This document shows positions 3,086 through 19,261 of a stretch of DNA of 64,000 bases, one piece after another. Origin of the DNA: Pseudomonas phage sp. 30-2; the sequence record LC727697.1, one strand, 5' to 3'. Numbering within the stretch: the first letter of the stretch is position 1; every line of letters begins with the position of its first letter. Under the pieces are notes generated by a model. The model worked only from the letters and a program-made list of their open reading frames with translations, was not told the origin of the DNA and made no database searches. A program made the position numbers and the translations under genes.

Positions 3086-3523
3086 TTACTGCGCATGTTG
3101 CAACATATATTTTGTCCAAGCCAAGATAATTGCGTGTTTCACTATAGCATAATTTTGAAAATAGAATTCCTCACCTAAACATTCTCTATAATTATCAGGT
3201 GACACATCAACCCCATACCATGCAGTTCCACCCTGTGTTTTGCAATTTATATAAAGCTGTGCTTGGTTATCTGAGATTATATCCACAATTCCTACGTCGC
3301 AATCGACCGTAACCTTTTCAGAAAGTTCTAATATATTGCATAACGGTACAATCCTTCCGCATACTGTTTTGACAAAACATATGTGTTCTGCTACATCAAA
3401 ATGAGTCATTAACGGATTATTATATAATTTAAATAGATCACTAGATACGTCTCTTTGACCACTTATATCTTTATAAATATTGTTATATATCGGATTCTTT
3501 CCGAACTTCGGATTCATAGACAT
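3086..3523 (-). CDS. hypothetical protein (145 aa)
   Basis: ORF on coding strand. Confidence 0.4.
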   Translation of the reverse strand: MSMNPKFGKNPIYNNIYKDISGQRDVSSDLFKLYNNPLMTHFDVAEHICFVKTVCGRIVPLCNILELSEKVTVDCDVGIVDIISDNQAQLYINCKTQGGTAWYGVDVSPDNYRECLGEEFYFQNYAIVKHAIILAWTKYMLQHAQ

Positions 3524-3890
3524 TAAATTTTCCTCCCGGATACCGTGCCTCTAGTTTTTCCACGTTCATGCCGATTATTTCATCTAGGGAAATATCGAGT
3601 GCAATACAAGCCGAAACAACATAGAACATTACGTCGCCTAATTCTCGTTTTAGATGATATACCACATCATCTGTATATTCTTTTCCTTGATATTTAAGTT
3701 TCTTAACAATTTCCCCAAATTCACCCGATTCTGCTAGCATACCCTGGCTTGCAGTATCTAATGTTTCTATCTTACAGCCATTTGCTTTGAGCTTTTTTAG
3801 TGCATCAATATATGCATCGAAATTAGAACTCGGTTCACTAAGTAGTTTCTGTACAAATTTAGTATAATTATTGTTTGTGCTCATTGTCAT
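3483..3890 (-). CDS. mazG: MazG-like nucleoside triphosphate pyrophosphohydrolase
   Basis: EEFGEIVKK ... ELGDVMFYV matches the MazG EExxE/ExxD helices; the size is typical of phage MazG. Confidence 0.65.
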   Translation of the reverse strand: MTMSTNNNYTKFVQKLLSEPSSNFDAYIDALKKLKANGCKIETLDTASQGMLAESGEFGEIVKKLKYQGKEYTDDVVYHLKRELGDVMFYVVSACIALDISLDEIIGMNVEKLEARYPGGKFNVYESEVRKESDI

Positions 3891-6541: not shown

Positions 6542-7213
6542 TTACTTCAGGTCAGCTTTAGTGCGGAATACTTTGTCTGCCAACCCGAACTCAACTGCTT
6601 CTTGAGCAGAGAGGAATGTGTCGAATTTCATAATTTCGATAAATTCGTCGAACGTCTTGCCAGCAGTGTTATGATGAACATACAGCTCAGTGAGACGCTT
6701 GTTAATTTTAGATAGTTCTGCCGCATGGCGGACAGCATCTTCAATTCCTAACTCAACTTGTTGAGTTGTGCCGCCGAATCCCCCGAAGCCGCCGCTGGCT
6801 CGATGAATCATAGTGCGGGATTCGCTAGACACGTAACGATGCCCCGGAGTACCTGCTTGTGCTAGGAAAGACCCCATACTGCATGCTTGGCCCAACACGA
6901 TGGTATTAACGGGACACGAAATATATTCCATCGTGTTATAAATAGACAAACCAGCAGTAACGCTGCCGCCCGGAGAGTTAATATACATCGAAACGGGCTG
7001 TTCTGCCGATTCCGATTCGAGGAAAAGAAGCTGGGCAACAATTACGGATGCCATCTCGTCGCGAACTGGACCATTAAGAAAAACAATACGCTCTTTTAGA
7101 AGACGGGAATAAATATCCCAACTACGTTCGCCGTTGCCGTTATTTTCGACAACCATGGGGATCAAACCAGCTTCGGTAGGATATTGTCCTTGTGCTGTAT
7201 AATTGTAGCTCAT
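6542..7213 (-). CDS. clpP: ATP-dependent Clp protease proteolytic subunit ClpP
   Basis: Ser in [14 protein letters not shown], His in TMIHR, Asp in [15 protein letters not shown] give an intact Ser-His-Asp triad; GC-richer than flanks; there is a Gly-rich stretch GGFGGFGG next to the catalytic His. Confidence 0.9.
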
Positions 7214-10671: not shown

Positions 10672-12402
10672 TTATGCAAGAACTTGTTCTACTTCTGCAC
10701 AATCTATTGTTTCTTTTTCCATTAACAAGTCTGCTACAAGTTTTAATTCAGCCTTTTTATCCGAAAGTAATGTTATGGCCTTATTGTACGCATCTTTTAC
10801 TAGAATTGCTGCATCTTGTTCTGCACTAGATTGCAAACTAGACAGGGTCGATGTCGCAACCGGTCCTATACTACCGAAACCACACGATGTAGTCATGTAT
10901 ACTGCAAGTTCGGTTGCTCTCTTTATATCTGAACTAGCGCCAGTGGATATTGCAGATTCACCGTATATGAGTTCTTCTGCTGCGCGGCCTGCCATTAACG
11001 TAACTAATTTATTCATGAGCTGCTCTTTGCTAACAGAAGGCTCTTCGTTAGGAAGAAATACAGTTACACCTAGTGCTAGACCTCGAGGAATGATAGATAC
11101 TTTATGCAAGTTATCATTAGATTTGTAAATTACACCCGATATTGCATGACCGGCTTCATGATATGCAGTACGAAGCAATTCTTCTTGGGTATATTTCTTT
11201 GTCGAATTTTCACCCATTAACACCTTATCTTTTGCTCGTTCTACATGCTCCTGGGTAATTACAGTTTGCCCAGACCTTACTGCATAGATTGCAGCCTCAT
11301 TGACTAGTTTAGCTAACTCAGCACCAGAGAATCCCGGAGTTCCTTTTGCTATTACTGAAAAATCTACATTGTCTTCAAATGTTTTTCCATTTGCATTTAT
11401 TTCTAAAATCTTCTGTCTAATCCCCACATCAGGTAAACTTAGTTGAACAATTCTGTCAAATCGTTTAGGACGAATAACAGCCGGGTCTAATATATCTAGT
11501 CTATTAGTAGCTGCAAGAATTGTAATACCATCGTTATCTTGCATTCCATCCATTTCTACTAATAACTGATTGAGTGTTTGGTCTGATCCATTAGATATTT
11601 TAGTAGAACGTTGCTGTGCAAGTGCATCAATTTCGTCTATGAAAATAATGCACGGCGCAGCTTCCTTTGCTTTTTTAAACATATCTGTTACACGGTTTGC
11701 ACCTACACCGACAAATGTATCATTAAACTCAGATCCAGCAACATAGAAAAAATTAACATTTGCCTCTTTTGCCATTGCCTTTGCTAAAAGTGTTTTCCCG
11801 ACGCCCGGACTGCCGTGCATTAGAATTCCACGAGGCACATCTATTCCCATGCTAGAATACTTAGTTCGATGAGCAATAAAATCAACTAACTCTTTTACTT
11901 CATTTATTTCGTGAGTATGGCCAGCTACATCGTTAAACGTTACTTCAATGTCTTTTGGTTCTATCTTGCGAAGTTTGGATTTACTTTTTGCATCTAATGA
12001 AGAACCAGGACCTATTCGCTTCAAAACGAATACCATTAAAATTAAAAATACTAACATTACTATAAGTCCAGACACCAAACTAGTAAGGAATGGACTAGGG
12101 GTAGAAGGTTCTTCGGTTACTACAGGAACACCTGCTTTAAGAAATGATTCTATTAATTTACTGGTATCTCCGGGGAATGTTACTTTTCTTCTGTCTGATG
12201 TATTAGTAACATACTGTAGTGTTTGTCCATCTTCTTTTAATTTAACACTAATTATTTTACCGCTCGTTGCGTCTGATAAAAAGGTGTTTATAGACACACT
12301 AGTCGGCTTGTAATTAATCGTTAACGCAAGTCCAGTTATGCATATTACAAGAAATAAAATAATAAATCTGTTATTTTTTATGAACTTAACAATATGTTGC
12401 AT
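10672..12402 (-). CDS. ftsH: FtsH-family membrane-anchored AAA+ zinc metalloprotease
   Basis: Two TM segments flank an ectodomain; Walker A GSPGVGKTLLAKA, Walker B IIFIDEIDAL, SRH ATNRLDILDPAVIRPKRFDR, M41 zinc site AYHEAGHAI. Confidence 0.9.
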   Translation of the reverse strand: MQHIVKFIKNNRFIILFLVICITGLALTINYKPTSVSINTFLSDATSGKIISVKLKEDGQTLQYVTNTSDRRKVTFPGDTSKLIESFLKAGVPVVTEEPSTPSPFLTSLVSGLIVMLVFLILMVFVLKRIGPGSSLDAKSKSKLRKIEPKDIEVTFNDVAGHTHEINEVKELVDFIAHRTKYSSMGIDVPRGILMHGSPGVGKTLLAKAMAKEANVNFFYVAGSEFNDTFVGVGANRVTDMFKKAKEAAPCIIFIDEIDALAQQRSTKISNGSDQTLNQLLVEMDGMQDNDGITILAATNRLDILDPAVIRPKRFDRIVQLSLPDVGIRQKILEINANGKTFEDNVDFSVIAKGTPGFSGAELAKLVNEAAIYAVRSGQTVITQEHVERAKDKVLMGENSTKKYTQEELLRTAYHEAGHAISGVIYKSNDNLHKVSIIPRGLALGVTVFLPNEEPSVSKEQLMNKLVTLMAGRAAEELIYGESAISTGASSDIKRATELAVYMTTSCGFGSIGPVATSTLSSLQSSAEQDAAILVKDAYNKAITLLSDKKAELKLVADLLMEKETIDCAEVEQVLA

Positions 12403-12442
12403 TATTTGATCCTATAAGGGGTTATGTGTGTAATATAACTGT

Positions 12443-13117
12443 TTACCGCTTATATGTAAATAGTTTTAAAAGTTTCTCTATAGACTCCATTATTGTATCG
12501 TACCAAAATAATACTACAGTTGTAGATAGTTTTTGCATAGATATATTTTCACATTTTTCGTTTATACAATCTTCTAATGTTTTGAGTATTACCACGCAAT
12601 TAATCACGTTTATTATCATACTGCCTATACAATAACTGACTGATAAATCTAATAGTATAGACATTACTATGGTCACAAGCAAAGTCATTGCTATAGAAAC
12701 ATTAAATGACGACGCGAAACTAAAAATGTTTTTTGACATAATTGCGTTTGCACAAAGAAACATATATAAAAACGAACTTATAGTAAACATAACTAAAACT
12801 AATAATGGCGCTACTTCCCCCAGTAACGCAGTTAATCCATTCCCTAATGTTATTCCTTGCCAAAATAATAAAAATACACTCCCTACAATAGACACATACA
12901 CATTTGTTCTAATACAATCTATAATAAACATTATAGCAAAATATGAAAATATACACACAAGTAAATTCATATTAAGAATTGGCATAGTTAATGCTAAATA
13001 TGCGCCGGCGGCTGCAAATATTCTAGTTAACATTAAAGTTGCAAATGTTCCTATTATAGATTTCTGTTCATTTGTTTTAAGTTCCAATTTTATCTCCTTA
13101 TAAAACAATCCCCGCAA
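12443..13117 (-). CDS. polytopic membrane protein (224 aa)
   Basis: Multiple hydrophobic segments; the overlapping + ORFs are treated as shadows. Confidence 0.45.
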   Translation of the reverse strand: MRGLFYKEIKLELKTNEQKSIIGTFATLMLTRIFAAAGAYLALTMPILNMNLLVCIFSYFAIMFIIDCIRTNVYVSIVGSVFLLFWQGITLGNGLTALLGEVAPLLVLVMFTISSFLYMFLCANAIMSKNIFSFASSFNVSIAMTLLVTIVMSILLDLSVSYCIGSMIINVINCVVILKTLEDCINEKCENISMQKLSTTVVLFWYDTIMESIEKLLKLFTYKR

Positions 13118-14034: not shown

Positions 14035-14583
14035 TTATTGAGAATACATACCCTCCAGATATTCCCAATTAAATATATTCCATATATTCTCGTAGTATGA
14101 CTTCTTGTCTGCTTTATAATCGAGCATATATGCATGCTCCCAACAATCAATAAGTAAGAATATATCGTCTCTTACTTCGTGATTTGGGATTTCCTTTATT
14201 ACAAGGGTATTAGAAACATAAATCCATCCAGAACCATGAACATCCATACATGCAGATATAACCTCATTTTTAAATTTAGAAAATGAAGTAAATTTAGATT
14301 TTATATCTTTTAATAATATCCCGGAAGGAGAATATCTTTTTTGAGAATCAGTAAATTGACTAAAATAAATCCCATGCAAGTATGCACCTGCAAATGAAAA
14401 TTTATTACTAGGGTCTTTGTTTACTGAAGATATGTAATTAGAATATAGTGTTCCGTAATGTAGTTCTACTAAATCTTTAGAGAAAGTAGGACTAAGACTA
14501 CTTACGGAATACGGGATAGGAATTTTCTTTACGGACGATGCAGCTTCTGCAATAGATATGTATTTCTTTATGGAATCATTCAT
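14035..14583 (-). CDS. sod: Fe/Mn-family superoxide dismutase
   Basis: LHYG near the N-terminus, the AGAYLHGIYF His region, and the diagnostic DCWEHAYMLDY (DxWEHAYY) motif. Confidence 0.7.
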   Translation of the reverse strand: MNDSIKKYISIAEAASSVKKIPIPYSVSSLSPTFSKDLVELHYGTLYSNYISSVNKDPSNKFSFAGAYLHGIYFSQFTDSQKRYSPSGILLKDIKSKFTSFSKFKNEVISACMDVHGSGWIYVSNTLVIKEIPNHEVRDDIFLLIDCWEHAYMLDYKADKKSYYENIWNIFNWEYLEGMYSQ

Positions 14584-14657
14584 AATTCTTATATCCCTAT
14601 ATGCTTTATTTATTATAATAGGGAAGGGGGCAGGTGTCTACCCCCGTTTTTGCTGTA

Positions 14658-14993
14658 TTACGATTCTTCTACAGTTACTTTAAAATCAGGATAACCGTTG
14701 TTAATGGCAAGTTGAACAGATTTAGACTGTTTCGATTCTGCAATTTCTTTTGTATAGCTGCCTACAATCTTTGCGCCGCGTTCATGCACTTCCATCATTG
14801 TATTGTATGCGCTAGATGCATCGTAGTCATATATATATACTAACAATTGCATAACAAATTCCATAGTGGTTTTGTTATCGTTGTGAAAAACTACATTATA
14901 TTTCTTAGGTTGAAATACAGTAGACGAAGTTTCAACTTTATTAGCTACCTTTACAGTCATTTTTAAATCCCAAGTTGATCGTAATTGATACAC
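14658..14993 (-). CDS. clpS: ClpS-like adaptor
   Basis: YNVVFHNDNKTTMEFVMQLL ... MMEVHERGAKIVGSYTKEIAESK follows the ClpS core. Confidence 0.75.
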   Translation of the reverse strand: MYQLRSTWDLKMTVKVANKVETSSTVFQPKKYNVVFHNDNKTTMEFVMQLLVYIYDYDASSAYNTMMEVHERGAKIVGSYTKEIAESKQSKSVQLAINNGYPDFKVTVEES

Positions 14994-15035
14994 ATTATTA
15001 TATATGTTTAAACAGTGTCGTCAAGTTATATAGCA

Positions 15036-15068
15036 AAAATAAAAAGCTGGAATACCAGCTTTTTATTT
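15036..15068. terminator. rho-independent terminator after hsp20
   Basis: aaaagctgg-aata-ccagctttt flanked by A and T runs. Confidence 0.65.
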
Positions 15069-15075
15069 GTAAACA

Positions 15076-15507
15076 TTATTCTATATCAATTACTTTTCGT
15101 TGTGATTCTGCAGGACTCGGCGGTTGAATTTTTATTGTTAGAATGCCATTTTTCATACCGCACGAAGATATATTTATAAGATCGTCTACAAGCCTGAATT
15201 TGACAGAAAAATCTTTACTAGAAATACCTTTGTGTTCGTATTCTACTTCAGTTTTAAAAATTCGTTCCGGTTTTGTTTCTATTACTAACAGTCGTTCTCT
15301 GCTATCTACATAAACATCTAGCTCGGATTTATCATAACCGGCAAGAGCTAATTCAAGACAATAGCTACCGTCTGCATTCTTTATCAAATTATGGGGAGGA
15401 AACTTCTGGCTACTAAGTTCATTAGTAATAGTATTAAGTAAATCAGTTGCACCTAGTGCATATCTATAATTAGCTAGGTTAGATGACATTATAACATGTT
15501 TTTGCAT
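15076..15507 (-). CDS. small heat-shock protein (Hsp20/alpha-crystallin)
   Basis: About 140 aa with an alpha-crystallin core and a C-terminal GILTIKI motif. Confidence 0.7.
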   Translation of the reverse strand: MQKHVIMSSNLANYRYALGATDLLNTITNELSSQKFPPHNLIKNADGSYCLELALAGYDKSELDVYVDSRERLLVIETKPERIFKTEVEYEHKGISSKDFSVKFRLVDDLINISSCGMKNGILTIKIQPPSPAESQRKVIDIE

Positions 15508-15590
15508 TTTTAATCTCCTTTACGCAAGATATAGTGTGAGCCCAATAAGGCACTCGTTGTATAGTATTCCTCATGGAATACTAATGTTAT

Positions 15591-16061
15591 TTATCTTTTA
15601 AATGTTGACTTATACGTTTCATATATAGCAGAATTGTTTTCGTGTTCCCATATTTCTATACTATGGACCCAACATCTTCCGCCAGAATGTTTTTCTATAA
15701 TGGGATTTAAATAGTCAAACAGATGCTTACATGAACCTTCTATTCCGGGACCATGGCCTTTTTTAACATCCATTATATTTAATTTAACTAGACCTTCTTG
15801 TTCCATTTGTTTAAGGATATTTAACTTGGGATCATCAGATGCAACTAAAACATTATGATCCCATTGTTCTTCCAACCATTTCCTAAAATCTTTCAATCCA
15901 CCAAAATCTACTACCCACATTTTATCATCTAATGTAGTAGCAGAAAAAACAATCTTCACTGTTCTTCCATAGCCGTGTATTCTACTGCAATGACCTGTAT
16001 CTTTCCATTGACGATGGCCAGTGGAAATAGGTCCAAATCTCTTAGTTGAAAAATATGCCAT
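15591..16061 (-). CDS. QueD/6-pyruvoyl-tetrahydropterin synthase-like protein (divergent paralog)
   Basis: CSRIHGYGRTVKIVF resembles the PTPS CxxxHGH site but has HGY in place of HGH. Confidence 0.5.
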   Translation of the reverse strand: MAYFSTKRFGPISTGHRQWKDTGHCSRIHGYGRTVKIVFSATTLDDKMWVVDFGGLKDFRKWLEEQWDHNVLVASDDPKLNILKQMEQEGLVKLNIMDVKKGHGPGIEGSCKHLFDYLNPIIEKHSGGRCWVHSIEIWEHENNSAIYETYKSTFKR

Positions 16062-16062
16062 A

Positions 16063-16398
16063 TTAAATTATTAATCCGCAATAAATGCATTTTTCTGCAT
16101 CTGTATTTGTATGATAATTAGTATTGTGATACACAAACTTATGATTGCAATACCGACGGATATACTGCATAGTTTTATCTATACAGATTATACGTTGTTC
16201 AAGTCTACTGCATTCGGATATAGCATCTTTATACGATTGGAGCTGTTCTATATCCATTTTTATGCTGGAAATAAGTAAAGAATCTGCAGGATCTGCAGGG
16301 ATGTCAACTTTATCCAATTGCCGTAGGCTATAATAGAGTTTATTCCTACGATTTCTGCAAAACATAAGTTCATTATTTAAAATCCTGCAAAGGTCCAT
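16063..16398 (-). CDS. hypothetical protein with C-terminal Cys cluster
   Basis: CNHKF ... EKCIYCG. Confidence 0.4.
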   Translation of the reverse strand: MDLCRILNNELMFCRNRRNKLYYSLRQLDKVDIPADPADSLLISSIKMDIEQLQSYKDAISECSRLEQRIICIDKTMQYIRRYCNHKFVYHNTNYHTNTDAEKCIYCGLII

Positions 16399-16400
16399 TA

Positions 16401-16607
16401 TTATATTTTTTTCTTTTTCTGGCGTTGAATTGCTGCTTTTTTAGCTTTTGTCTTTTTTACAGAAGGCTTTTCATAGAATTCGCGTTCTCGAACTTCTTTT
16501 AATTTTCCTGAATTTTGAACCTTTTTAGTAAAAGTTCTAAGTGCTTGGTTAAAGTTATCGTGTCTTACTTCTACAGTAAGACCAGTAATTATATTAAATG
16601 TCTTCAT
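16401..16607 (-). CDS. rpsU: ribosomal protein bS21 homolog
   Basis: VEVRHDNFNQALRTFTKKVQNSGKLKEVREREFYEKPSVKKTKAKKAAIQRQ aligns with bacterial S21 (VRENEPFDVALRRFKR ... AEVRRREFYEKPT ... RKRAKA); start overlaps the clpX stop by 14 nt. Confidence 0.8.
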   Translation of the reverse strand: MKTFNIITGLTVEVRHDNFNQALRTFTKKVQNSGKLKEVREREFYEKPSVKKTKAKKAAIQRQKKKKI

Positions 16608-17820
16608 TTTGCCCTTTTATGAAATTATGTTTTCCTAGTTCGTGTATAATAATCTTGCTAAACCCTTCTCGTCTTATAGAAGGCAATCTATATGCTATAC
16701 TAGATAGTTCTTTTTCTAAAATAGTTCTTAAACCACGAGCGCCTGTTTTCCTATTAAACGCTGTAGTAGCAACAGATTTTATAAAATCTTCATCGAATTC
16801 TAATTCAATGTTATCTAATTTAAACATAGTTTGATATTGTTTAAGTATAGAACTTTTAGGCTCTACTAGAATTCGACGAAGCATAGTCTCTGTTACATCA
16901 TGAAACGCAATAAGAACAGGAAATCTCCCTACAAATTCTCTTATAAAACCGTATGTATACAAATCTTCCGGTTCTACATAGAATAAACTACCTTCTATGG
17001 GTTTACCAGCTTCTGAACCAAATCCCATTTGAGATTTAGTAGAACTAAGTCTTTTATTTATTACTGCATCCAGTCCTATAAATGCGCCGCCAACTATAAA
17101 CAAAACGTTAGTTGTGTCAAACATAATTTCCTGCCTAGGACTAAACATACTGTTAGAATTTAGTTCTAATTTAATCGTTGTTCCTTCTAACACCCGAAGT
17201 AAAGACTGTTGAACACCCTCGCCGGAAACATCAGATCCTGCAGAATTTGTTCCTTTTTTAGAACGCTTCTTATCTATTTCATCTATAAATACGATTCCAC
17301 GTTGCGCTAGTTCTATGTCACCATTTGCTTCTGCGATTAATCTAGTAAATATAGTCTCTACATGATCGCCGACATATCCTGCCTCTGTTAGCGAAGTAGA
17401 ATCTACAGAAACAAAAGGTATGTTTAACAATTTAGATATACTAGATATTAAAAATGTCTTACCGCTGCCTGAAGGTCCCAGTAGCATTATGTTAGATTTA
17501 GATAACTCTACATCATGTTCAGTAGTGTTATAGTTTACCCGTTTATAATGATTATACACTGCTAGACTTAGTAATTCTTTTGCGTGATCTTGCCCTACAA
17601 TGTCTTTATCTAGCAATTCCTTTAGTTCTTCAGGTGTGTATTTTATTTCTAATTTATTAGATTCCCGATCATTTGTTTCAGCAGTTTCTAAAAAATTGTT
17701 GCACTGAGTTACACACTGGTCACATATATATACATTTGATCCATATTTAGCAGGGCTACGAAACAACTTAGACACATCATCTTTGCCTTTATTGCAATAA
17801 GAGCATGTTTCTTTCGACAT
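16594..17820 (-). CDS. clpX: ClpX ATP-dependent unfoldase
   Basis: N-terminal C4 zinc finger (CSYCNK ... CDQC), Walker A LLGPSGSGKTFL, GYVG pore loop, Walker B IVFIDEIDK. Confidence 0.9.
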   Translation of the reverse strand: MSKETCSYCNKGKDDVSKLFRSPAKYGSNVYICDQCVTQCNNFLETAETNDRESNKLEIKYTPEELKELLDKDIVGQDHAKELLSLAVYNHYKRVNYNTTEHDVELSKSNIMLLGPSGSGKTFLISSISKLLNIPFVSVDSTSLTEAGYVGDHVETIFTRLIAEANGDIELAQRGIVFIDEIDKKRSKKGTNSAGSDVSGEGVQQSLLRVLEGTTIKLELNSNSMFSPRQEIMFDTTNVLFIVGGAFIGLDAVINKRLSSTKSQMGFGSEAGKPIEGSLFYVEPEDLYTYGFIREFVGRFPVLIAFHDVTETMLRRILVEPKSSILKQYQTMFKLDNIELEFDEDFIKSVATTAFNRKTGARGLRTILEKELSSIAYRLPSIRREGFSKIIIHELGKHNFIKGQNEDI

Positions 17821-18356: not shown

Positions 18357-18423
18357 TTTTATATTCCTTATTAATATGCTATGTGTAACTACTATGGATA
18401 GGTCCTATCCATAGTAGTTTTTG

Positions 18424-19113
18424 TTATTTTACAAGAGACATAAATTCTGCACGGGTGGCAGGATCGTTGCTAAATGCACCACTTAATTTAGAAGTTATCG
18501 TACTCGAACTTGTATCTTCTACACCCCTAGATTCCACACACAGATGCCTTCCGTTAATTAAAACAGCAACATCGTCTGTTTCCAGAATATACCGTAATGC
18601 ATGAAATATTTGCAATGTGAGTCGTTCTTGAACTTGAGGTCTCTTGCAGAAAAATTCTGCTACTCTATTTAATTTAGAGAGACCTATTACTTTATTTTTA
18701 GGAATATAAGCAACTGATATTCCGCCTCGACCGGAAGATGATCCAGAAATTATTGGTAAAATATGATGTTCGCACTGAGAATATAAATCTATATCTTTTA
18801 CTAAGACCATTTCATTTGCATTAAATTTATTTTCAATAGTGGTGCATTTAGGAAATGCCTCATAATCCAAGCCATAAAATATCTCAGATACATACATTTT
18901 TGCTACTCGACGAGGCGTTTCTGCAAGACTATCGTCGGAAAGATCCAACGCAAGTGCATTCATAATTTCAACAAAATGAGATTCAATTTTATCTATCCGC
19001 TCTTTAACGTTTAGAGTTTGCTCTTGCATAGGAGTTTCTACTCCTTGTTGGATTAAATATTGCTGTACTTTTTTGCCTAGTTCGGCATCAGTTTTAGTTT
19101 TGTTTAACGACAC
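18424..19113 (-). CDS. folE: GTP cyclohydrolase I
   Basis: CEHHILPI motif and the C-terminal KRPQVQERLT signature. Confidence 0.85.
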   Translation of the reverse strand: MSLNKTKTDAELGKKVQQYLIQQGVETPMQEQTLNVKERIDKIESHFVEIMNALALDLSDDSLAETPRRVAKMYVSEIFYGLDYEAFPKCTTIENKFNANEMVLVKDIDLYSQCEHHILPIISGSSSGRGGISVAYIPKNKVIGLSKLNRVAEFFCKRPQVQERLTLQIFHALRYILETDDVAVLINGRHLCVESRGVEDTSSSTITSKLSGAFSNDPATRAEFMSLVK

Positions 19114-19261
19114 GATTTCCTCCTGAAATCATTTTAGTTTGATAAGCAAAGTGCCGCCTGCACTTTGCTTTAATTATTTGTATAGTATACTATACGTTTT
19201 CTTCCGTGTCAACCCAATGACAAAGATATTTAGATACGTTTTAACATCATTAACTACATAG

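Follow-up and report, generated by a model that had tools for sequence, protein, structure and literature searches.

A bS21 homolog encoded in overlap with clpX in a Pseudomonas jumbo phage, and the recurrence of this gene pair in other large phages

The stretch of 64,000 nucleotides from Pseudomonas phage sp. 30-2 that we analyzed (LC727697.1; hereafter the window) carries an intact gene for a homolog of the ribosomal protein bS21 (S21), which begins inside the 3′ end of the phage clpX. Taking the evidence below together, we consider it moderately probable that this gene encodes a phage bS21 that is made together with ClpX, binds the bS21 site of the host 30S subunit and tunes initiation.

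The S21 gene and its junction with clpX

The features at the center of this analysis were as follows.

16401..16607, minus strand: phage bS21 homolog (rpsU-like), ATG start, 68 aa, pI 10.6; PF01165, TIGR00030 and PHROG 21469
16594..17820, minus strand: phage clpX, 408 aa; NF003745 and TIGR00382, with zf-C4_ClpX, AAA_2 and ClpB_D2-small domains
16594..16607, minus strand: clpX/S21 overlap, 14 nt; clpX 3′ end …AAT GAA GAC ATT TAA, S21 5′ end ATG AAG ACA TTT AA
16612..16618, minus strand: Shine-Dalgarno (SD)-like AAAAGGG inside clpX, 4 nt (CAAA) upstream of the S21 ATG

The 68-aa product of the intact S21 open reading frame (ORF), MKTFNIITGLTVEVRHDNFNQALRTFTKKVQNSGKLKEVREREFYEKPSVKKTKAKKAAIQRQKKKKI, matched Pfam PF01165 (Ribosomal_S21) with an E-value of 1.1e-15 and 57.5 bits (cut-off 27) over profile positions 1-54 of 55, and the NCBIfam equivalog TIGR00030 (S21p) with 52.6 bits (cut-off 28.95) over positions 2-58 of 58. 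It also matched PHROG 21469, 'ribosomal protein S21', at E 9.3e-16, and the top sequence matches of a phmmer search against PDB were the bS21 chains of Staphylococcus aureus, Escherichia coli, Pseudomonas aeruginosa and others (E ~1e-10 to 1e-8). These family matches are far above chance and, judged by curated family cut-offs, the ORF is a genuine homolog of the bacterial ribosomal protein bS21. An earlier, sequence-only reading of the window had named the product S21 and proposed the PF01165 search; both family models bear the name out. Its description of a residue-for-residue alignment to the S21 core holds for the motifs, with VEVRHDNFNQALRTF, EVREREFYEKPS and TKAKKA all found and with ALRTF and REFYEKPS aligning with their counterparts in E. 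coli, S. aureus and P. aeruginosa, but not for the loop that reads VRENEPF in E. coli, where the phage protein has a deletion of one residue. The annotated start is supported because the N-terminal M-K-x-[F/Y] is kept in relatives at 57-67% identity. Like P. aeruginosa bS21 (pI 10.8), the phage protein is strongly basic, with a net charge of +14.

The gene is phage-encoded, as had been claimed, and lies on a true virus genome rather than on a contaminating cellular contig, since the 6 kb around S21 match ten P. aeruginosa jumbo-phage records of the PA5oct type at 98.3-99.2% identity. These are complete genomes of isolated phages in the genus Wroclawvirus, family Arenbergviridae, and include Deifobo, PAC2, 30-3, Paride, PA5oct, Cassandra, MIJ3, Callisto and Ettore. 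Virion structural genes are also encoded in the window, nearly all genes of which are on the minus strand; its GC content is 31-36%, with which that of the S21 gene (~33%) is in line. The sequence-only reading had noted that virus-encoded S21 is known from a subset of marine phages; the present phage comes from sewage or compost, not from the sea. In PA5oct the gene is EST35_0256 (QCG76137.1, '30S ribosomal protein S21') and overlaps clpX (EST35_0255) in an identical layout; it is labeled rpsU in MIJ3 (MIJ3_00097) and 'ribosomal protein S21' in Paride (Paride_0054), Deifobo (Deiofobo_0054) and Ettore. The published Wroclawvirus proteins (PA5oct, MIJ3, Paride, Deifobo) are 98.5-100% identical to ours and have the identical overlap and the same neighbors, so that the difference is essentially nil, apart from the label 'hypothetical protein' that the gene carries in the Callisto and phage 30-3 records.

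The upstream ORF scored 455.7 bits against NF003745 (cut-off 359) and 415.9 bits against TIGR00382, and its translation reads as an N-terminal C4 zinc finger followed by an AAA+ module with a GYVG pore loop. Its stop codon occupies 16594-16596 and the S21 ATG 16605-16607, which gives an overlap of exactly 14 nt, so the coordinates agree with the earlier claim of such an overlap and the family models with its naming of ClpX. The junction is 100% identical in seven Wroclawvirus genomes, across which ClpX has 31 synonymous and three nonsynonymous variable sites. Pairing of the S21 SD with the 3′ tail of 16S rRNA was estimated at -4.4 kcal/mol, compared with a median of -4.0 for genes in the window and of -1.5 for random positions; the strength of this SD is thus typical for window genes. 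In a terminator scan, no terminator-like site on the minus strand separated clpX from S21, and a sigma-70-like match inside clpX (17120-17093) is a consensus match only.

The clpX-S21 pair and its IF3 variant in other phages

A scan of IMG/VR with the window ClpX returned 75 loci at 36-50% identity, on contigs of up to 578 kb, and this sample comprises only ClpX proteins with exact 8-residue peptides in common with the query. Downstream S21 ORFs were found with the S21 profile, and the start codon nearest the clpX stop was chosen, which favors tight junctions where several starts exist. Read with that in mind, 67 of the 75 loci had S21 downstream of clpX in the same orientation, and its start fell within -14 to +3 nt of the clpX stop in 57. 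The distances in the latter were -8 (25 loci), -4 (14), -11 (10), -14 (3) and +1 or +3 (5); six further loci had gaps of 27-89 nt and four had distances of more than 500 nt, while S21 was missing from eight. In sampled checks, six S21 ORFs scored above the Pfam cut-off and four upstream genes had the ClpX architecture. When the loci were clustered by ClpX identity, tight junctions were present in 41 of the 57 clusters formed at 90%, 17 of the 31 at 70% and 10 of the 22 at 60%. Pairwise identities of ClpX and S21 co-varied (Spearman 0.76, over pairs that are not independent). Among 80 bacterial rpsU loci, none had ClpX, Hsp20 or ClpS within 3 kb. On these comparisons the clpX-S21 pair is deeply conserved, with S21 retained behind clpX over large evolutionary distances.

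Approached from S21, the association was asymmetric: ClpX stood upstream in only three of 56 S21-seeded viral loci from IMG/VR (L008, L009 and L019). There it was 44-50% identical to the window ClpX and directly preceded S21, with a 4-nt ATGA overlap in L008, a 3-nt gap in L019 and a 4-nt GTGA overlap in L009, where Hsp20, ClpS and FtsH follow. Nor is the pairing universal, since neither S21 nor IF3 lies downstream of ClpX at the Lak megaphage and Bacillus phage G loci.

Other genes precede S21 elsewhere. In three huge-phage contigs of 115-435 kb (L018, 2731-6219; L023, 2476-6282; L010, 3803-6309) the genes ahead of S21 are a type IA topoisomerase and an AAA ATPase of 433-439 aa that is not ClpX, and the junction is either an overlap of 4 nt or a gap of 2 nt. 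Several lineages have an AAA+ ATPase upstream of S21, which in pelagiphage HTVC008M is CobS. The marine metagenome contig L002 (ERZ23491676, 3061-9421) encodes a 98-aa S21 extended at its N-terminus by a basic stretch of 30 residues, in a 14-nt overlap with an upstream gene of 132 aa; the idea that the latter is a remnant of ClpX was rejected on test. Downstream of this S21 are an IMPDH-like gene, Hsp20, ClpS, heme oxygenase and a ferredoxin-dependent bilin reductase, a cyanophage-like context.

In some phages the position behind clpX is taken by IF3. Among the IMG/VR loci in which S21 is missing or displaced, four have IF3 (IF3_N and IF3_C domains) immediately after ClpX, and two cultured jumbo phages have the same order (positions are those of each locus).

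L183, 4202-4783: IF3 with an 8-nt clpX overlap, then Hsp20 and ClpS; the same module with IF3 replacing S21
L162, 4314-4853: IF3 only
L176, 4223-4780: IF3 in the order ClpX, IF3, S21
L156, 4276-4800: IF3 after ClpX, with S21 1.9 kb further
Atu_ph07 (L230), 3293-3796: IF3 directly after ClpX, cultured jumbo phage
Phosso (L231), 3299-3820: IF3 directly after ClpX, cultured jumbo phage

ClpX followed by IF3 has also been reported for AP-J-162 (PMC11242549). A protein of the 30S initiation machinery thus comes after ClpX in 69 of the 75 sampled viral ClpX genes. We found no description of a ClpX-then-bS21/IF3 arrangement in the literature searched, and its conservation appears to be unreported. 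That related phage ClpX genes are almost always followed by bS21, with IF3 in six sampled phages, and that the pairing is absent from bacterial rpsU loci, suggests a functional tie of the phage Clp system, and of phage proteostasis genes, to translation initiation.

Origin, possible coupling and proposed role of the phage S21

For comparison with the host protein (RpsU, 71 aa; 7UNR chain u) we used the P. aeruginosa bS21 sequence, which is identical to PDB 7unr_u over 71 residues. The two proteins share family, size, charge and the core ALRxF…(E/S)REFYEKP, with 43% identity over 51 aligned residues (45% to E. coli bS21). The phage protein differs in an N-terminus that is ~10 residues longer, in the one-residue loop deletion and in its C-terminus: the comparison of tails proposed by the earlier reading shows a phage tail shorter by ~10 residues, in which the end of the host protein (…RRRERLY) and so the terminal RLY is missing, and which is Lys-rich where the host tail is Arg-rich. 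Higher identities were found to metagenomic protein P0002 (67%), to the S21 proteins of L009 (63%) and L008 (57%), to a marine contig family (55%) and to Salicola phage SCTP-2 (51%); identity to HTVC008M was 43%. A recent capture from the host was rejected on these figures. Because S21 proteins of other large phages are closer (51-67%) than that of the host, the identities place the phage protein within a phage-borne S21 lineage. Alphaproteobacteria came top in a scan of bacterial genomes, at 46-54% identity, in a search seeded by exact peptides (e.g., YEKPSVKK) and hence biased, and we do not rely on them as the closest cellular relatives; the shared one-residue loop deletion is the sole hint toward an alphaproteobacterial-type S21. 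A word-indexed protein search with S21 returned four relatives only and did not place the origin of the gene.

Across the seven Wroclawvirus genomes S21 has two variable sites in 207 nt, one synonymous and one giving T8S, against 3.1% variable columns over 6 kb; two sites are too few for a selection test. Among phages more broadly the S21 core is kept at 40-67% identity, always in an intact ORF, which is consistent with constraint. It could still be argued that S21 is a decaying or neutral passenger recently acquired from a bacterium, given that ribosomal protein genes are at times mis-binned or transferred and that INPHARED S21 matches from Staphylococcus, Listeria and Enterococcus resemble bacterial contamination. 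Set against this are an ORF that none of the ten Wroclawvirus records shows disrupted and whose single substitution, T8S, is conservative, the low identity to the host protein, a GC content that fits the phage, and the sharing of the gene pair with phages whose ClpX is only 36-50% identical; we regard the passenger explanation as extremely improbable and effectively refuted. As a separate observation, phage-collection records H32-H38, H52-H57 and H60-H61 (Staphylococcus, Listeria, Enterococcus, E. coli), which are short and unannotated and carry S21 or ClpX at ~45-52%, look like bacterial chromosomal fragments and not phage genes.

The role that we propose runs through four steps, of which our confidence decreases in the order co-transcription with clpX, linked translation, entry into the 30S subunit, and initiation altered to the benefit of the phage. 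S21 and ClpX would most likely be made from one polycistronic mRNA. Their co-expression, put forward in the sequence-only reading, appears well supported by the shared strand, the 14-nt overlap, the lack of a terminator-like site between the genes and the tight junction conserved in distant phages, the last of these counting for more than the overlap alone. The S21 AUG and a modest SD are placed within the last 25 nt of clpX, and translation of S21 may be linked to that of clpX, perhaps by strict translational coupling. The protein would then most likely occupy the bS21 site on the platform of the host 30S subunit, beside the 3′ end of 16S rRNA with its anti-SD, replacing or supplementing the loosely bound, exchangeable host bS21, and would thereby tune translation initiation during infection to phage advantage. 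Entry into the 30S subunit is plausible because bS21 is exchangeable and because the bS21 of pelagiphage HTVC008M, the only viral bS21 experimentally shown in ribosomes, becomes part of E. coli 70S ribosomes (PMC6375957). For huge-phage S21 proteins with N-terminal extensions, substitution for host S21 has been predicted (PMC7162821). Strict coupling of translation, entry of the protein into ribosomes and a bias toward phage mRNAs all stand as hypotheses from the literature (PMC6375957, PMC9723584, PMC7162821), and incorporation into P. aeruginosa ribosomes and a benefit to phage mRNAs are what we infer.

Several observations weigh against this proposal. Overlaps are common in the genome: of the 85 junctions between same-strand genes in the window, 28 overlap and 49 have gaps of at most 20 nt, so the 14-nt overlap is by itself weak evidence. 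Folding of the junction RNA gave no unusual structure (z = -1.15), which leaves RNA structure masking the S21 start unsupported as a coupling mechanism, so that a dependence of S21 on clpX translation is not predicted from folding; given both points, S21 may initiate independently of clpX translation. Binding to the P. aeruginosa 30S subunit is not assured either, because the ~10 C-terminal residues of the host protein are missing and identity to it is low. An AlphaFold2 model built on a four-sequence alignment reached a moderate predicted local distance difference test score of 67.7 (helices at 19-33, 35-44 and 48-67), and all seven Foldseek matches in PDB were mitoribosome entries with non-significant E-values of 0.38-1.7, four of the matched chains being bS21m by sequence search; structure contributed no support beyond that from sequence. 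E. coli ribosomes carrying pelagiphage bS21 retained ~5% of in-vitro activity (PMC6375957). Finally, the S21 gene is not discussed in the PA5oct, MIJ3 and Paride papers, and S21 is not among the proteins of the PA5oct record flagged by electrospray ionization tandem mass spectrometry (virion proteome).

The frequency of overlaps leads to an explanation in which the junction reflects genome compaction only, and S21 is co-transcribed with clpX but initiates at its own SD, with no true translational coupling. That S21 owns an SD of average strength, that no stable structure masks its start and that several related phages have gaps of 27-89 nt all fit this; the 57 of 75 viral loci with tight junctions do not, nor do the recurring distances of -4, -8, -11 and -14, which hold down to 36-50% ClpX identity and point to a junction that is maintained and not incidental. 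We give compaction a substantial chance, while thinking it the less probable account of the junction. The low activity of ribosomes with pelagiphage bS21 bears on what the protein would do once bound, since it fits an inhibitory role equally well, and the effect on initiation could equally be inhibitory. A phage S21 acting as a ribosome poison or shut-off factor would sit in the bS21 site and disable or narrow initiation, for example by blocking host mRNAs, and its foreign N-terminus and missing host tail would suit such a role. Against it, the ~5% figure comes from affinity-purified ribosomes of a host paired with a heterologous phage, the present phage must itself translate ~460 genes on the ribosomes in question, and its SDs are ordinary (the medians given above), offering no obvious discrimination between phage and host mRNAs; we think a poison unlikely. 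The same ordinary SD sequences mean that there is no evident SD-based way to favor phage mRNAs under the tuning role that we prefer.

The conserved adjacency can also be turned toward ClpX itself: a small basic protein might act as a ClpXP adaptor, cofactor, substrate or RNA-binding partner in a non-ribosomal role. This would account for the gene being kept directly behind clpX, in an adjacency that is conserved well beyond the synteny around it (67 of 75 loci, the co-variation of 0.76, none in bacteria), and S21 comes behind another AAA+ ATPase in L018 and L023 and behind CobS in HTVC008M. What speaks for translation instead is the good conservation of the S21 core (ALRxF, REFYEKPS), which in bacteria makes contact with 16S rRNA, together with the presence in some phages of IF3, also a 30S initiation protein, in the slot behind clpX. 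We know of no ClpX adaptor with a bS21 fold, and hold a purely ClpX-linked role to be improbable. Beyond the tuning role, we offer as a doubtful conjecture that clpX and a 30S initiation component (usually bS21, sometimes IF3, and both in two sampled loci) might form an old, co-inherited and tightly joined two-gene module in a broad group of large phages, one that mechanistically links unfolding or proteolysis by ClpX(P) to the reprogramming of host ribosomes. ClpXP might, for example, clear host bS21 or hibernation factors from the 30S subunit, whereupon the phage protein would take over. Were this so, the module could aid replication of Wroclawvirus members such as Paride in dormant P. aeruginosa.

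Gene neighborhood and comparison with known systems

The pair is embedded in a block of minus-strand genes in the order folE, queD, clpX, S21, a 111-aa gene, a second PTPS, hsp20, clpS, a superoxide dismutase (SOD)-like gene, a Bax1-I-like gene and ftsH, of which folE is probably the first.

19184..19212, minus strand: sigma-70-like promoter candidate TTGACA-17-TATACT upstream of folE, consensus match only
18424..19113, minus strand: GTP cyclohydrolase I (folE), PF01227 200.9 bits
17838..18356, minus strand: QueD/PTPS gene, PF01242 104.3 bits, 17 nt upstream of clpX
16063..16398, minus strand: 111-aa gene with no assigned family, third tightly packed cistron, 2 nt after the S21 stop
15591..16061, minus strand: PTPS/QueD-like gene, second paralog, PF01242 77.7 bits, 1 nt after the 111-aa gene
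15076..15507, minus strand: Hsp20 small heat-shock protein, PF00011 40.6 bits
14658..14993, minus strand: ClpS adaptor, PF02617 76.8 bits; longest ORF, the GenBank form being shorter (303 nt)
10672..12402, minus strand: FtsH protease homolog with Peptidase_M41, AAA and FtsH_ext domains
6542..7213, minus strand: ClpP proteolytic subunit, PF00574 202.2 bits, corresponding to PA5oct EST35_0272

Spacing from queD onward is tight throughout (17 nt, then -14, +2 and +1 up to the second PTPS). The two PTPS/QueD paralogs flank the clpX-S21 pair, beside folE, and in the viral survey a PTPS-like gene lay upstream of ClpX in 38 of 75 loci and FolE in 13; genes for 7-deazaguanine or pterin precursors thus travel with the pair. 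The 111-aa gene, whose C-terminus is Cys/His-rich, had no Pfam or PHROG match and no homology to the equally long gene behind the HTVC008M S21 (E 0.028). In the seven near-identical Wroclawvirus genomes it is hypervariable, with 28 variable sites in 336 nt, 20 of them nonsynonymous and eight synonymous, while its neighbors are constrained (synonymous/nonsynonymous sites: ClpX 31/3, Hsp20 9/0, ClpS 6/0, SOD-like 13/0), a pattern suggestive of diversifying selection or of relaxed constraint.

Promoters of the form TTGAC/TATAATA were given for PA5oct (10.1101/406421), but promoter-like matches in the window were not enriched over shuffles (50 vs 64.7). Perfect or near-perfect hairpins lie in the folE/queD (18387-18419) and PTPS/hsp20 (15562-15583) gaps and upstream of folE (19144-19170). 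The T-runs of these hairpins occur on the plus strand alone, antisense to the genes, and the hairpins could be antisense terminators or elements of RNA processing or stability. With promoter matches unenriched and hairpin T-runs antisense only, the limits of the operon are provisional.

A near-complete proteostasis set, all on the minus strand, falls within 12 kb (6542-7213, 10672-13117, 14035-15507 and 16594-17820) and comprises ClpP, FtsH, ClpS, Hsp20, ClpX and others, among them an Fe/Mn-SOD-like protein and a weakly matching Bax1-I/YccA-like membrane protein that is annotated as FtsH-interacting in PA5oct. Hsp20 is also found downstream of S21 in L009, L002, L030 and HTVC008M. ClpP is the likely partner of the phage ClpX, whose ClpP-docking loop (in the region of residues ~215-270) has MGF instead of the IGF seen in L008, L009 and L019. 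The pore-2 region, as read from the sequence, has no RKH motif. In E. coli ClpX the RKH motif helps to recognize ssrA tags, and because it is missing here the choice of substrates may differ.

As a finding, a phage bS21 is ordinary: the gene is already known at the level of annotation in several GenBank genomes, and viral bS21 proteins, described since 2019, are an established class (PMC6375957, PMC9723584, PMC7162821). Almost all work on them has concerned uncultivated phages or difficult hosts (Pelagibacter, freshwater Bacteroidota). The present gene occurs in isolated therapy-candidate phages (PA5oct, MIJ3, Paride) of the tractable PAO1, for which the 70S structure is solved, so that entry of a phage bS21 into host ribosomes and its role there are directly testable.

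Among known systems, the HTVC008M bS21 (AGE60443; PMC6375957) shares with ours the PF01165 family, a large lytic myovirus as its carrier, an N-terminal extension, a shorter V(K/R)-NNN loop and Hsp20 two genes downstream. It differs in its 43% identity, in having CobS upstream instead of ClpX, and in its marine setting and alphaproteobacterial host; it also appears host-derived, whereas the present S21 is not close to the bS21 of its own host. The bS21 proteins of Bacteroidota phages (PMC9723584) and huge phages (PMC7162821) are alike in family, in their proposed substitution for host bS21 and in their N-terminal extensions, and Hsp20 and Clp pVOGs are among their frequent neighbors within 10 genes. 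Those genes sit among late structural genes and show features (Tyr54) tuned to SD-less Bacteroidota hosts, unlike the present S21, which sits in a block of proteostasis and queuosine-precursor genes directly behind clpX, the phage host being a gammaproteobacterium that uses SD sequences. The bS21 paralogs of Francisella tularensis, where a swap of homologs changes which mRNAs are translated (PMC9578407), offer an analogy only, as they are cellular and not viral. In the cultured Salicola phage SCTP-2, the gene order is topoisomerase II, a hypothetical gene, ClpX and S21, and its gene 193 (ASV44208.1; L144, 4965-5225) is labeled 'hypothetical protein' though it is a clear S21 homolog. This phage resembles ours in carrying ClpX, a 16-nt gap, S21 (PF01165 53.3 bits; 51% identity) and ClpS on one strand, and differs in being a 440-kb saltern phage of another lineage, with an S21 of 86 aa that has longer termini.

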